A DNA stretch of 39,399 nt from Candidatus Iainarchaeum sp. GTDB taxonomy: Archaea; Iainarchaeota; Iainarchaeia; Iainarchaeales; Iainarchaeaceae. Positions 3,496 through 32,347 of the stretch are shown here, in pieces. Location: positions 1 through 39,399 of the forward strand of contig JBDRLP010000042.1 in assembly GCA_043812975.1 (NCBI GenBank). Direction: 5' to 3'. The translations under genes and the position numbers were made by a program. The notes below the pieces were generated by a model that saw only the letters and a program-made list of their open reading frames with translations, did no database searches and was not told the DNA's origin. Position 1 is the stretch's first letter. Every line of letters starts with the position of its first letter.

Positions 3496-4152
3496 ATGGA
3501 TTTTGAAGCAGAAAGAAAGAAACTGGTAGAATACATTTCCGGATTTGCAGTAACAAGTTCAGAAATAAAAAAAGCAATATCTGAAATTAAAAGAGAAAAT
3601 TTTCTTCCGGAAAACCTGAAACAACATGCTTACGATGATAATGCTGCTCCAATAGGACATGGACAGACTATTTCTCAGCCATCAACAATAACAGTAATGT
3701 TAGAGTTGCTTGGTGTAAAAAATGGAATGAAAGTTCTGGAAGTTGGTTCAGGCTCAGGATATGTATTAGCATTACTTTCAAAATTAGTTGGAAAAGAGGG
3801 TAAGGTTTATGGAATTGAGTATTTGAAAGAACTTGTGGAAAATTCCAGAGAAAACCTGAAAAAAGAAAAAATTAAGAATGTAGAAATTAAGCAGGGAGAC
3901 GGTTCATTAGGCTGGGAAAACAAAGAATTTGACAGGATACTCATCAGCTGTGCATGCCCTTTTGTTCCAAAAACACTTTTTGACCAATTAAAAGAAAAAG
4001 GCAGAATTGTAGCTCCTGTTGGAGATCAGGGAACACAAATCCTGGAAATTTTAATGAAAGAAAAAGGAAAACCATTCAAGAAAAGCTACGAAGGCGGATT
4101 GTATACTTTTGTGCCATTAAAAGGCAAGCACGGTTACTCAACAAATTTATAG
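3496..4152 (+). CDS. pcm: Protein-L-isoaspartate O-methyltransferase
   Basis: AYDDNAAPIGHGQTISQP, VLEVGSGSGY, GDGSLGW, FVPL. Confidence 0.93.
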   Translation: MDFEAERKKLVEYISGFAVTSSEIKKAISEIKRENFLPENLKQHAYDDNAAPIGHGQTISQPSTITVMLELLGVKNGMKVLEVGSGSGYVLALLSKLVGKEGKVYGIEYLKELVENSRENLKKEKIKNVEIKQGDGSLGWENKEFDRILISCACPFVPKTLFDQLKEKGRIVAPVGDQGTQILEILMKEKGKPFKKSYEGGLYTFVPLKGKHGYSTNL

Positions 4153-13716: not shown

Positions 13717-14226
13717 ATGGCATTTTTAGTTGATGATAAAGCAATATTAAGAGACAAAAAACTCGGAGACCAGCTTAGACAAAGAGGCTTCGGAGAACAA
13801 AAATCCAAAGAATTAGTGTTAGACTTATTTGAGACTGCTTATTTACTTGAAAAGGGAACAATCAAAATTGAAGATTCCAAGGAAAAACACATTGATTCTG
13901 AAGAACTAATCAAATACGCTTCCAAAAAAATCAAGAATTATTATTTAAAATACCAAGTATTCAATGACCTCAGAGAAAGAGGTTTTGTTATAAAAACCGG
14001 TTTTAAGTTCGGATTCGATTTCAGGGTTTATCCTCGCGGAAAAAAACCAGGGCAGGCCCATTCTCAGTGGTGTATTAATGTTACAGCACAACAGGATAGG
14101 TATAACTTTATTGAGCTAAGCAGAATGGTCAGGTTAGCAGGAAACCTGAAAACAAAACTCCTTAATGCAGTTGTTGATTCTGAAAATGAAATCAATTACT
14201 ATGAAGTAACAAGAATTACTCCCTAA
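13717..14226 (+). CDS. endA: tRNA-splicing endonuclease (single-unit type)
   Basis: LDLFETAYL, DLRERGFVIKTGFKFGFDFRVY...HS, AVVDSENEINYY. Confidence 0.92.
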   Translation: MAFLVDDKAILRDKKLGDQLRQRGFGEQKSKELVLDLFETAYLLEKGTIKIEDSKEKHIDSEELIKYASKKIKNYYLKYQVFNDLRERGFVIKTGFKFGFDFRVYPRGKKPGQAHSQWCINVTAQQDRYNFIELSRMVRLAGNLKTKLLNAVVDSENEINYYEVTRITP

Positions 14227-23933: not shown

Positions 23934-24065
23934 ATGCCATACAGAGAAGGAGTAACAACAATACAACTTACACCCACAACCCGGGACAAACTCAAAGACC
24001 TAGGGAAAAAGGGCGAAAGCTACGAAGAAGTAATACTACGCCTAATAAAAGCTTATAAAAAATAG
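23934..24065 (+). CDS. Small RHH/antitoxin-like protein (43 aa, not in ORF track)
   Basis: MPYREGVTTIQLTPTTRDKLKDLGKKGESYEEVILRLIKAYKK: TTI.L...RD.L...G.KGESY..VI.RL pattern of archaeal RHH antitoxins. Confidence 0.75.
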   Translation: MPYREGVTTIQLTPTTRDKLKDLGKKGESYEEVILRLIKAYKK

Positions 24066-24083
24066 TCCAACACAGAAATAATA

Positions 24084-24166
24084 GGCTTGGGAGATGTGGA
24101 AAATGACGATGATTCTGACTCTCATTCAGGAGCATGAGGATAGATGGGCGGACTGAATCCCAAGCC
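24084..24166 (+). ncRNA. Box C/D sRNA-like gene (copy 1); D guide matches 16S C1402
   Basis: Terminal stem GGCTTGGGA/TCCCAAGCC, C-like ATGACGA (24103-09), C' ATGAGGA (24134-40), 12-nt guide TAGATGGGCGGA, D box CTGA (24153-56). Confidence 0.7.
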
Positions 24167-24211
24167 ATTGTACTATTTTAGCTATTGCAAGCCACTTCAG
24201 AAAGCATTATA

Positions 24212-24238: not shown

Positions 24239-24748
24239 ATGCTTGTGGTGAAAGATTCCATGGTTCTCATACACCTTGCCAAAATAACGGTTCTTGAAAA
24301 AAGCTGTGGTCACTTTGGGAACATCATAATTCCGAAAAAGGTTTTTGATGAAGTGGTTACAAAAGGAAAGGAAAATAATTATCCGGATGCCATCATCGTA
24401 GAAGAAGCAGTAAAAAAGGGGAAAATTTCCGTAAAAACTGTTAAGGCTAAAGAGCTGGAGAAAAGAGCCAACCAATTCAATGTTTTTGGCGGTGAAGCAG
24501 AGGCAGTGGCACTTTACTGGCAGGAAAAAGCAAATCTCATAGCATGTGATGACGACAATGTCAGGAACAAGAAGGAAATACTGGAAATAAACATTATTGG
24601 CACGCCTTCAATATTACTTTCGCTTTACAGAAAAAAGAAAATAACAAAGGAAAAGCTTGAAGAGTCAATAAATAAGCTTAGACAAATAGGCTGGTTTAAC
24701 AATCAGGTTCTGGATGCAATACTGTTGGAGGTGCATAAAAATGGGTGA
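24239..24748 (+). CDS. PIN-domain toxin (DUF3368-like)
   Basis: VVKDSMVLIHLAKI, IPKKVFDEV, GGEAEAVAL, IACDD, IIGTPSIL. Confidence 0.85.
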   Translation: MLVVKDSMVLIHLAKITVLEKSCGHFGNIIIPKKVFDEVVTKGKENNYPDAIIVEEAVKKGKISVKTVKAKELEKRANQFNVFGGEAEAVALYWQEKANLIACDDDNVRNKKEILEINIIGTPSILLSLYRKKKITKEKLEESINKLRQIGWFNNQVLDAILLEVHKNG

Positions 24749-25043
24749 ATCACACGCAATAGGAATACGCCTTGAAAATAATCTGCTCAAAAGGGTAGAC
24801 AAAATGAGCGAGGAAGAAAAACTGGACAGGTCGACAGCAATAAGGGTGCTCATAGAAGAGGGTTATGCCTCGCGTTCGAGAAAAAAAGCCGCCGCAGATT
24901 ACGCCGCAGGAAAAATAACCATGAGCAAGGCCGCAGAAAAATCCGGCACGACCATATGGGAATTTGAACAATACCTAATAAGCACTGGTTATAAGTCACA
25001 ATATTCAATAAGCGACCTCATGGAAGAAGCTAAAAAAATCTGA
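24741..25043 (+). CDS. UPF0175-family antitoxin with N-terminal RHH
   Basis: IGIRL...LDRSTAIRVLI, YAAGKITMSKAAEKSGTTIWEF. Overlaps the PIN gene. Confidence 0.85.
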   Translation: MGESHAIGIRLENNLLKRVDKMSEEEKLDRSTAIRVLIEEGYASRSRKKAAADYAAGKITMSKAAEKSGTTIWEFEQYLISTGYKSQYSISDLMEEAKKI

Positions 25044-25088
25044 ACAGATTCCGCAAAAATACGAGCATCATACATAGAGAGCCTGAAT

Positions 25089-25156
25089 AATCACTTGACG
25101 ATGACACAGAGCTGATTCACAGCGATGACGAAAGATTGGCGGACTGAGGCGTGATT
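25089..25156 (+). ncRNA. Box C/D sRNA-like gene (copy 2, diverged)
   Basis: Stem AATCAC/GTGATT, C TTGACGA, guide TGACACAGAG, D' CTGA, C' ATGACGA, guide AAGATTGGCGGA, D CTGA. Confidence 0.72.
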
Positions 25157-25246: not shown

Positions 25247-26467
25247 ATGGTTTCAAAATATGATTTGCTTTATTCAGTCTTCCTGAACGAAGGATTGACC
25301 GCCGCACAACTTGTGAGGAAAATAGGCAAAACACCTTATGATTACGACACGGTTCTAAAGCACCTTTTGCAGCTTAGAGAAGAGAAGTTAGTTGAAACTA
25401 AAAAAAACAAATATTACTTATCTCAAAAGGAAGAAACAAAAAAACTCCTCAGGATAATTGATTATTGTTTCAGAAACAAAATAAATTACAACGAACTATT
25501 TCTGGATAAAACAATCGAGTTCATTAAATTTGGATTGGAGAACAAAGATTTTTCAGAACTTGGTCTCAACAACAGGACAAGAGCAAGAATTTCCTTGTTT
25601 TTATCAAAACACGGTTTCATAATAATTGAATCAAAAAAACCATTCAAAGTAAAAATGGTTTACTCGGATTTCCTGAAAAAAACTGTTGAAATATTCAAAG
25701 GCGAAATTAAAGTCAAATGCGACAAAATCTACGAACAAATGGATGGGGAAGAAATAGATTCACAGATAGAAAAAGAATTCTCAAAATACAAAAAAGCAGC
25801 AAAACAAATAAACCTCAATGACGAGGTGCGCTTCGTCCATAGGAGCCTTTCACTCGAAGGCAACACAATGACTCTCTCCGAAACAGAGAAGCTGATAAAA
25901 CAAAACATTCCTCCGAAAGAAAGGACTTTTCAGGAAATGCAAGAAACAGTGGACTACAAGAAAGCACTTGATTATCTTATTGAAATAAAAGAACTGGACT
26001 TTGAAACAACCCTTAAATTCCACGGAACAGCAATGAACTCATTAAAGGCCGGCGCGGGAGAATTCAGAAAGCAAAATATCAGGATTAAAGGCAACCCTGA
26101 TTTTAAGACAGCTGACTGGAGGCAAATACCAAATCGCTTGGAAGATTTATTTAAGTATTACCAAAACAAGATTCACAAAAAAATCAAGGCACATGAATCT
26201 GTTGAACTATCCGCCTATCTCCACAGTGAGTTCCAACATATTCACCCATTCATAGACGGCAACTCTAGGACATCAAGAGCAATATTCATTCACGTACTTT
26301 TACTGAAAGGTTTTCCTCTCATTAATTTTCCTGCGGGTTTTGTCGAACAGTACATGGAACTCACAAAACTCTCGAAAAAACGGGATGACAAAAAATTCAC
26401 GGTTTTCATGAAGCAACTTGTACTGCATTCTTTGAAGCAGACAAACCAGAAAATAAGATACTTGTAG
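25247..26467 (+). CDS. Fic-domain protein with N-terminal wHTH
   Basis: HPFIDGNSRTSR Fic motif, SLSLEGN inhibitory motif, GEFRKQNIRI. Confidence 0.92.
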   Translation: MVSKYDLLYSVFLNEGLTAAQLVRKIGKTPYDYDTVLKHLLQLREEKLVETKKNKYYLSQKEETKKLLRIIDYCFRNKINYNELFLDKTIEFIKFGLENKDFSELGLNNRTRARISLFLSKHGFIIIESKKPFKVKMVYSDFLKKTVEIFKGEIKVKCDKIYEQMDGEEIDSQIEKEFSKYKKAAKQINLNDEVRFVHRSLSLEGNTMTLSETEKLIKQNIPPKERTFQEMQETVDYKKALDYLIEIKELDFETTLKFHGTAMNSLKAGAGEFRKQNIRIKGNPDFKTADWRQIPNRLEDLFKYYQNKIHKKIKAHESVELSAYLHSEFQHIHPFIDGNSRTSRAIFIHVLLLKGFPLINFPAGFVEQYMELTKLSKKRDDKKFTVFMKQLVLHSLKQTNQKIRYL

Positions 26468-26487
26468 AAAGAATTTGAAATAACTCC

Positions 26488-26523
26488 TCATCTTTCGGGT
26501 TAGATGGGCGGACTGAGGCTTTT
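26488..26523 (+). repeat. Direct repeat copy 3 (3' part of the C/D-like unit)
   Basis: TCATCTTTCGGGTTAGATGGGCGGACTGAGGCTTTT, 32/36 identical to 31918-31953. Confidence 0.9.
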
Positions 26524-31774: not shown

Positions 31775-31917
31775 TAGTAACTAAAAAAACAGTACCGACA
31801 TTCTTTAAAGTCTTTAATAAATTAGTCCTCAGAAAAAAAGATGAAAAATTAAGCGATTTAAGGAAAAGATGAATTAAACCAAGTTAGTGGTACAAATAAA
31901 ACTATGTAATTATTTCT

Positions 31918-31953
31918 TCATCTTTCAGAGCAGATGGGCGGACTGAGGCTTTT
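31918..31953 (+). repeat. Direct repeat copy 4 (3' part of the C/D-like unit)
   Basis: TCATCTTTCAGAGCAGATGGGCGGACTGAGGCTTTT. Confidence 0.9.
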
Positions 31954-32347
31954 ATTTTTTCTTTTCCTCTTTCCCGAGCTTTGCTTTCAAGTCGTCTAAA
32001 ATCTTGTCACGCTCGTTAAACATTCCTTTGAATTCTGCCTCTTCTTTTTCTTCTTTTAATTTTTTTTTGTCGATTTTTGGCCGATTAATCCATTGTGAAA
32101 GTTTCAAAACTATGAGTGCAATAATTATGATTCCCAAAATAATAACAGCAATTTTTGCAAGCTGCAATGCTTCAGATAATTCCCCAAACAACTGTCCGGC
32201 ATTAGTTGTTAATCCTTCAACATCCCCTTCATTAAATGATTCAGCAGTTTTACCAGCAGTATTCTGAGCATTGGCTGAAACAAAAGGCAGAAATAAAGCT
32301 AAGGAGATTAACATTAACATTAAGAAAAAATTTTGAGTATTTTGCAT
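31952..32347 (-). CDS. Hypothetical exported/membrane protein
   Basis: Signal peptide, one TM helix, charged tail. Confidence 0.65.
   Translation of the reverse strand: MQNTQNFFLMLMLISLALFLPFVSANAQNTAGKTAESFNEGDVEGLTTNAGQLFGELSEALQLAKIAVIILGIIIIALIVLKLSQWINRPKIDKKKLKEEKEEAEFKGMFNERDKILDDLKAKLGKEEKKK

Follow-up and report, generated by a model that had tools for sequence, protein, structure and literature searches.

A probable dual-guide box C/D small RNA gene with a predicted C1402 guide, and the cassette arrays behind it, in Iainarchaeota

In bacteria the 2'-O-methylation of C1402, a cytidine of the 16S ribosomal RNA (rRNA) at the P site and decoding centre, is the work of RsmI, a stand-alone enzyme. 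Eukaryotes reach the equivalent 18S cytidine through small nucleolar RNAs (snoRNAs), presumably the guides named snR70 and SNORD43; this is the same box C/D mechanism that we propose here for an archaeal locus, and the guides are likened to ours by target only. The snoRNA-dependent residues are given as Cm1639 in yeast, Cm1703 in human and Cm1645 in Arabidopsis, the last with AtU43 (PMC11542601, Table 1; PMC2831307), and rsmH and rsmI are reported absent from archaea (PMC2831307). Among archaea, RiboMeth-seq has detected Cm1402 in the DPANN member Nanoarchaeum equitans, for which the authors saw 'no obvious sRNA candidate'; in Ignicoccus hospitalis, Iho sR11 is predicted to guide it (PMC5389701). 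The accessible part of a seven-species survey of C/D small RNAs (sRNAs) holds sparse helix-44 predictions and mentions none at 1402 (Dennis et al., PMC4644070); on box sRNAs of Diapherotrites our literature search found nothing. Here we analyse a stretch of 39,399 nucleotides (nt), hereafter the window, which is contig C42 of an assembly of Candidatus Iainarchaeum sp. (genome G000; 1.24 Mb, 68 contigs, 94% complete, GC 35%). We consider it very probable, from sequence comparison, that positions 24084-24166 on its plus strand are a gene for a dual-guide archaeal box C/D sRNA, which would most likely direct 2'-O-methylation at two predicted 16S positions, C1402 and about A1061 (E. coli numbering). 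This genome and every other genome compared are metagenome assemblies.

The closest described RNA is sR2 (RF01139), the best Rfam family under relaxed thresholds, for which our literature search found no published target. With a cut-off of 42 bits, the window RNA scores 15.9, its ortholog in the same-genus genome G003 24.9 and an ortholog in AR10 32.0; a Methanothermococcus RNA with the same D guide is an sR2 member at 55.2 bits. An earlier note on this DNA, which had read the locus as a C/D sRNA guiding C1402 methylation, had proposed an Infernal search as a check: the Rfam side of that search gave the weak match just described for the window copy, while a covariance model trained on the homologs matches 117 of the 151 genomes that were sampled from the order. 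In box order, in the 12-nt D spacer and in the D-guide core GATGG.CGG the window RNA resembles sR2. It is unlike sR2 in its sub-gathering score, its other D' guide and its C box, ATGTGGA, and also in size, with 83 nt, a 9-bp stem and a 14-nt internal hairpin against about 57 nt. The window element probably works like sR2 and is related to it, yet it is not a member by the Rfam rule.

The pattern formed by the C' box and D guide recurs in 82 stretches of a species-representative genome collection. Among the 81 matches read, the carriers include canonical C/D sRNAs of Methanothermococcus and of metagenome-assembled genomes labelled Thermococci, Methanobacteriota, Thaumarchaeota/Nitrososphaerota and Thermoproteota, each with a different D' guide. 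Compared with N. equitans, a candidate guide is present here and near-universal in the order, a comparison that concerns presence and not sequence. What are the implications of a guide of this kind? Because it is lineage-wide and probably related to sR2, and because its guide sequence is common to Methanothermococcus and other archaea, it suggests that Archaea have long guided Cm1402 by RNA and do so in many lineages, among them genome-reduced DPANN members with very few C/D sRNAs.

Anatomy and conservation of the locus

The proposed mechanism follows what is established for box C/D ribonucleoproteins (RNPs). The terminal stem would join the C and D boxes and the internal hairpin likewise D' and C'; L7Ae, Nop5 and fibrillarin would assemble on the two motifs, the 12-14-nt spacers would pair with 16S, and fibrillarin would methylate the 2'-OH opposite the fifth base upstream of D or D' (position N+5). 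In this way C1402 would be selected by the D guide, and the helix-34 A at E. coli ~1061 by the D' guide. In addition, the RNA may act as a chaperone, its two guides holding segments of helices 34 and 44 together while the 30S subunit assembles. We infer that the RNA is transcribed, assembles into an RNP on its variant C box and guides both methylations.

The features of the locus and of its surroundings are collected in Table 1. The earlier note had named a 9-bp terminal stem, a C' box ATGAGGA, a 12-nt guide and a CTGA D box, all of which lie where it had placed them, the stem pairing perfectly and the D spacer measuring exactly 12 nt; the D' box, the D' guide and the variant C box had been overlooked. 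The D'/C' motif has a canonical kink-turn layout, with a 4-bp stem, a 3-nt bulge CAT (24133-24135) and a GA opposite the GA of D'.

Table 1. Features of the sRNA locus and of the repeat-bounded region behind it (window coordinates)
Feature	Position	Strand	Remarks
TATA-like A/T-rich stretch	24053..24062	+	about 27 nt 5' of the stem start; possible archaeal promoter, from reading the sequence; overlaps the end of a DUF7557 gene
Terminal stem, 5' arm	24084..24092	+	7 of 9 helix pairs vary on both sides in homologs
Variant C box ATGTGGA	24094..24100	+	5 of 7 positions of RUGAUGA; aligns with ATGATGA of relatives
D' guide	24101..24114	+	14 nt; 24104-24114 pair with 16S C12:517-527
D' box CTGA	24115..24118	+
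Internal hairpin CTCT/GGAG, loop CATTCA	24119..24132	+	4 bp, 24119-24122 with 24129-24132
C' box ATGAGGA	24134..24140	+	TGA.GA almost invariant in homologs
D guide TAGATGGGCGGA	24141..24152	+	24143-24151 pair 9/9 Watson-Crick with CCGCCCATC
D box CTGA	24153..24156	+
Terminal stem, 3' arm	24158..24166	+
PIN-like gene (DUF3368, weak)	24239..24748	+	overlapping pair with the next gene, between sRNA copies 1 and 2
RHH/UPF0175 gene	24741..25043	+
sRNA copy 2	25081..25150	+	D' guide 25095-25106, D' box CAGA, hairpin, C' box ATGACGA 25125-25131, D guide 25132-25143, D box 25144-25147
Fic/DOC-family gene	25247..26467	+	cassette behind the sRNA
Type D repeat 1	26486..26519	+	left arm CCTCATCTT, 6-nt spacer, right arm and extension TAGATGGGCGGACTGAGGC; no C or C' box
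Type D repeat 2	31905..31949	+	followed by a conserved flank with a gene (31952-32347) homologous to one in G001

Conservation and covariation carry the identification. A BLAST search with 24070-24180 against 60 relatives recovered a 53-nt core, 24104-24156 (query 35-87), in 15 of them at E<=1e-3. The homologous loci are textbook dual-guide C/D sRNAs: a short GCC/GGC stem, ATGATGA, a 13-nt spacer with CTGACGATGA, CTGA, a hairpin, ATGANGA, the 12-nt NAGATGGGCGGA and CTGA, the D' guide core CTGACGATGA being kept across them. The relatives with this RNA are mostly labelled Candidatus Iainarchaeum, Diapherotrites and AR10, within DPANN. We aligned 21 full-length copies, the second copy in the window among them. 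In this alignment little or no variation is seen in the D box, in the TGA.GA of C' and in the guide strings AGATGGGC (D) and TGACGATGA (D'); AGATGGGC is unchanged in 20 of the 21 sequences, the exception being window copy 2, and the D box is CTGA in 20, with CCGA in G037.

The two helices, terminal stem and internal hairpin, are paired in 86.1% of alignment cells against 58.8% in shuffles, a value that none of 500 shuffles reaches, and sliding the partner strands leaves 30-53% paired. Both helices covary: 11 of the 13 pairs vary on both sides, including all four hairpin pairs; for the first of these four, the 21 sequences have C-G nine times, U-A six times and G-C four times. The covariance model introduced above was built from this alignment; besides its matches across the order sample it finds the RNA in 45 of 53 high-quality genomes. 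In the source genome it has two matches, 24089-24160 and 25081-25151, both of which were in its training set.

Predicted targets in the native 16S rRNA

Does the organism's own 16S carry the sequence that the guide calls for? The 3' part of the gene, on contig C12, reads ACACACCGCCCATCAAGCC, and the D guide pairs with C12:863-871 (CCGCCCATC; E. coli 1399-1407) through nine Watson-Crick pairs out of nine, with C1402 at N+5, opposite G24148. The earlier note had likewise placed the C1402 equivalent opposite the fifth guide base upstream of D. It had assumed the target string CCGCCCGTC, which has no occurrence in this genome, and had described a 9-nt duplex including one G-U; the length was right and the G-U falls away, so that pairing with the native 16S, a check it had itself proposed, turned out better than assumed.

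The D' guide, through 24104-24114, forms 11 contiguous pairs (nine Watson-Crick and two G-U) with GGTCATCGTCA at C12:517-527, its fifth base standing opposite an A at E. coli ~1061 on the 5' strand of helix 34. We take the ~1061 numbering from the presumed anchors C1054, G1064 and C1066, and that of C1402 from G1401, G1405, U1406, C1407 and A1408. The latter agrees with PMC4644070 and PMC5389701.

Both guides appear to address conserved 16S segments near the decoding region. Among 31 order genomes with a 16S match, the D target CACACCGCCCATCA is present in 30, and the remaining one has G at 1405; judged from these sequences, A at 1405 is an order-wide trait. The D' target GGTCATCGTCAG is found in 29 of the 31, the other two carrying GGCCATCGTCAG, and of this target the string TCATCGTCAG occurs in 29 and CATCGTCAG in all 31. 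Since Methanothermococcus has the same guide and G1405, which gives a G-U pair, the guide U predates the A1405 substitution. As a separate observation on this 16S, the segments C12:506-532 and 859-872 of the source genome depart from the usual base at two decoding-region positions that are otherwise nearly universal, with U at E. coli 1054 and A at 1405. A sister clade carries a different D' guide, ATTGAACACCTG, whose exact 12-mer target was found only inside the sRNA gene itself (four genomes, exact matches only); in the window's own genome the same 12-mer target has two unrelated matches.

The proteins of the predicted particle, whose presence had also been proposed as a check, are all encoded in the genome: the profiles score 272.1 bits for fibrillarin, 205.5 for Nop5 and 93.9 for L7Ae, each above its curated cut-off. 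In the same order, the genes lie at C2:553-1203, C2:1730-2410 and C45:173-433. Taken with conservation, covariation and native pairing, these genes support the identity that the earlier note had assigned, a C/D sRNA with a D guide to C1402. An open reading frame (ORF) in the window, at 3496-4152, matches a fibrillarin-like SAM methyltransferase weakly and below cut-off (25.8 bits); it is distinct from the true fibrillarin gene, which lies on contig C2. Elsewhere in the genome a strict pattern finds a sole canonical dual-guide C/D sRNA, at C68:3302, one guide of which matches 23S over 10 nt. The strict canonical-box scan misses variants like the window copy, and its one match is not a count of the genome's C/D sRNAs; the repertoire nevertheless seems very small.

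Variant C box and second copy

Several observations weigh against a functional dual-guide sRNA at this locus. Boxes and rRNA complementarity taken alone are at chance level: the pattern TGANGA, 12 nt and NxGA with at least nine contiguous rRNA-complementary bases covering N+5 is found for 4 of 51 candidates in the real genome and for 2 of 24, 1 of 35, 5 of 29, 1 of 23 and 3 of 23 in five shuffled genomes, and we do not use it as support. The locus has no Rfam match at the gathering threshold in the scan of the window. Its fold energy is ordinary (z -1.10; 29 of 200 shuffles fold as well), single-sequence folding on either strand does no better than shuffles, and the centroid structure retains the terminal stem alone. 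The D' spacer, at 14 nt, is longer than the 13 nt of most homologs. In some relatives a G-to-A change at position 2 or 3 upstream of box D cuts the duplex to 7-8 bp though their 16S keeps CC. The C box ATGTGGA is without its first GA, and in neither register can a canonical kink-turn, 3-nt bulge included, be drawn next to the 9-bp stem.

The target 16S, moreover, sits on another contig, and a second, differing 16S 5' fragment is present. The two fragments, C53:6244-7485 and C12:1-1000, disagree where they overlap and may stem from two operons or from a binning mixture; because both targets are order-wide, the discrepancy leaves the pairing argument intact. The C53 copy is itself broken after ~790 by an insert that, on a reading of its sequence, apparently encodes a LAGLIDADG-type homing endonuclease.

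Could short motifs have come together here by chance, or could the locus belong to the minus-strand ORF of 58 codons (23992-24168) that overlaps it? The first idea draws on the searches just described, in which motifs and complementarity match shuffled genomes as often as the real one. The locus stands beyond chance because of its conservation and covariation: a chance cluster would not be conserved across the order with compensatory changes, and the edges of the conserved BLAST block coincide with the boxes, not with the ORF. We regard both ideas as scarcely credible.

More weight attaches to the possibility that the window copy is an altered paralog that guides no methylation, acting as an antisense chaperone of 16S folding alone or decaying. 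The defective C box and its undrawable kink-turn would fit such a paralog, as would the existence of a second copy in the genome and the canonical ATGATGA version in the same-genus genomes G003 and G001; a chaperone role of dual guides is discussed in PMC7994747. The homologs argue otherwise. We tallied the C boxes of 56 distinct homologs with this D' guide, aligned on that guide: TGATGA is present in 34, with a median terminal stem of 5 bp (range 3-14), and TGTGGA, TGTTGA or TGTAGA in eight, from several genera, whose stems measure 5, 7, 7, 9, 9, 9, 9 and 9 bp. A further ten are of the copy-2 type, without a TGNNGA box and with no stem measured, and the remaining four have TGAAGA, TGACGA or a mis-parsed box. 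The TGTNGA box is, on this tally, a recurring form tied to long stems and not a one-off decay product, which points to a maintained variant. In its pairing with stems of 7-9 bp, it offers a natural test of how much kink-turn L7Ae requires. An alternative C box, GAGATGT (24091-24097), which was also cmscan's choice, was dropped for ATGTGGA once the homologs had been aligned.

Copy 2 scores 70.1 bits with the covariance model, for which it was a training sequence, and has no recognisable C box; one G-to-T change in its D guide, AAGATTGGCGGA, splits the C1402 duplex into 5+3, and its D' guide is intact with 10 Watson-Crick pairs. Conserved counterparts of copy 2 occur in G007, G014 and G071. Copy 1 keeps both guides, and the covariance model sees no further copy beyond these two. 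Since copy 2 is without a C box and its D duplex is broken, copy 1 is the sole copy in the genome whose C1402 guide is intact. We therefore hold an altered, non-guiding paralog to be unlikely and retain the dual-guide methylation sRNA as our reading of copy 1.

Cassette arrays behind the sRNA

The earlier note had spoken of a housekeeping guide inside a mobile-looking region. The mobile-looking setting stands; the logic is reversed, for the sRNA is the conserved anchor and toxin-antitoxin and Fic cassettes are placed behind it. With up to two mismatches, the 14-mer GATGGGCGGACTGA occurs four times on the plus strand of the window, at 24143, 26503 and 31933 and, with one mismatch, at 25134; 0.05 occurrences would be expected by chance, and none of 100 shuffles reaches four. 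The occurrences at 26503 and 31933 are not sRNAs and belong to a repeat of about 45 nt, here called type D, whose extension repeats the D guide and D box of the sRNA exactly and runs into a GGC tail. Most homologs, and copy 2 of the window, likewise have GGC after the D box, where copy 1 reads ATCCC. The type D consensus from 21 copies (a 22nd sequence is a chance match) is TCATCTTTC, five variable bases and (A/G)GATGGGCGGACTGAGGC, with imperfect inverted arms around a 6-nt spacer. We considered type D as a kink-turn RNA and ruled this out, its 5' half being without GA.

Along the window the order is sRNA copy 1, the PIN-like and RHH genes, sRNA copy 2, Fic, a type D repeat, a block with CBS, Na/H exchanger, P-type ATPase and ArsR genes, a second type D repeat and the conserved flank. 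Genome G014 repeats this layout for the gene pair between the sRNA copies (79.5% identity, 1122 nt). The pair is not found between the paralogs in G007 and G071, where the sRNA copies adjoin, and it is absent from G003, where a single canonical sRNA lies directly before Fic. In G001 the sRNA stands beside ilvD, followed by one other gene, a type D repeat and the same flank as in the window.

Of 159 genomes of the order, 12 have the type D pattern (at most one mismatch), at 22 places in all. Sixteen of these lie downstream of a match to the sRNA covariance model on the same contig and strand, and two of the other six are in genomes outside the search with that model. In G071 (contig C54, locus L116, 4760-14470), nine type D repeats stand on the same strand behind tandem sRNA copies; they span 9 kb at intervals of 0.7-2 kb, and each closes a unit of one to three co-oriented ORFs: HEPN and nucleotidyltransferase pairs, RHH with MazF/PemK, an MqsA-like pair, Fic and a family-2 glycosyltransferase. 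Repeat-bounded Fic cassettes are present in G047 as well as G071, and the array of G068 holds HicA/HicB.

Homology breaks between arrays fall at the repeat. The glycosyltransferase unit is cassette 1 after the sRNA in G047 and cassette 5 in G071, with 92.7% identity over 973 nt that begins one base before GATGGGCGG in both, and relative to G047, G071 has exactly one additional unit between this cassette and Fic. Two G071 units are duplicated internally (92-94% identity) with different neighbours. Within the same array, at C54:8789-8856, lies a partial sRNA made of C' box, D guide and D box, 31 nt of which are 100% identical to the 3' part of the G047 sRNA; this hints that a cassette was transferred together with a piece of its anchor. 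A search of viral contigs for the type D repeat gave no matches. Metagenome contigs gave nine loci with the pattern, seven of them type D-like, three of these with an sRNA upstream; the other two represent one chance match inside a coding-looking stretch.

What process could build such arrays? In our judgement the odds are about even that Iainarchaeota have an undescribed, integron-like system of site-specific recombination whose fixed attachment site is the 3' end of the sRNA gene, comprising D guide, D box and GGC. Circular cassettes would carry a site of about 45 nt in which a 6-nt spacer separates a left arm, CCTCATCTT, from a right arm with the sequence of the sRNA 3' end. Most would hold toxin-antitoxin pairs, Fic proteins or glycosyltransferases. 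They would enter immediately upstream of the guide, where the right arm begins; every insertion would restore the sRNA, and each cassette would come to be followed by a repeat. The recombinase would be encoded in trans and might be a XerA-like enzyme. The guide would make a good target because it is frozen by its pairing to the 16S decoding centre. The homology pattern of the arrays is, as far as the sequences tell, that expected from site-specific insertion; homologous recombination among the repeats, or a role of the repeat as a terminator or 3' element, could explain part of it.

The arrays resemble integrons, islands at tRNA 3' ends and Xer-site (pdif) modules in several ways: co-oriented and mostly toxin-antitoxin cassettes, a short imperfect inverted repeat at the end of each cassette, identical cassettes at different array positions, and a start at a fixed site, here a small RNA gene regenerated by the repeat. 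They are unlike integrons in having no integrase beside the arrays and a repeat of about 45 nt with a 9-6-11 architecture, in which the R box consensus of integrons is missing; their anchor is a C/D sRNA gene, as against attI in integrons or a tRNA gene in islands. Recombinase domains were found neither in the scanned ORFs of the window nor upstream of the arrays in G071, G047, G068 and G082, none was seen near the metagenome type D loci, and the window has no attC-like Rfam match at the gathering threshold. Five genomes each encode one strong XerA-like tyrosine recombinase and several others (PF00589), all on other contigs. The XerA-like enzyme of G000 is encoded at C27:17506-17991. The main text of a paper on archaeal integrons is silent on Iainarchaeota and on sRNAs (PMC9668308). 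If the proposal is true, a methylation-guide gene fills the role of tRNA genes and attI sites, as a new anchor of gene capture in DPANN archaea.

Such an anchor raises the thought that the sequence is kept mainly as a DNA attachment site for cassettes, its likeness to an sRNA being secondary. That its last ~18 nt, from the D guide to GGC, form the right arm of 21 cassette-bounding type D repeats speaks for this. The full RNA, in contrast, is far more widespread than the repeat (117 of 151 genomes against 12 of 159), compensatory changes in two helices indicate selection on RNA structure, both spacers match 16S, and the guide is also present in lineages in which arrays were not seen. We consider a mainly DNA-level role very unlikely, and the dual-guide sRNA remains our explanation of why the sequence is kept.

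Two further genes of the window deserve mention. A tRNA gene at 1272-1346 on the minus strand is its sole Rfam match at the gathering threshold, and a tRNA-splicing endonuclease gene lies at 13717-14226; the latter might matter, as pure speculation, if long-stemmed sRNAs are processed or circularised.

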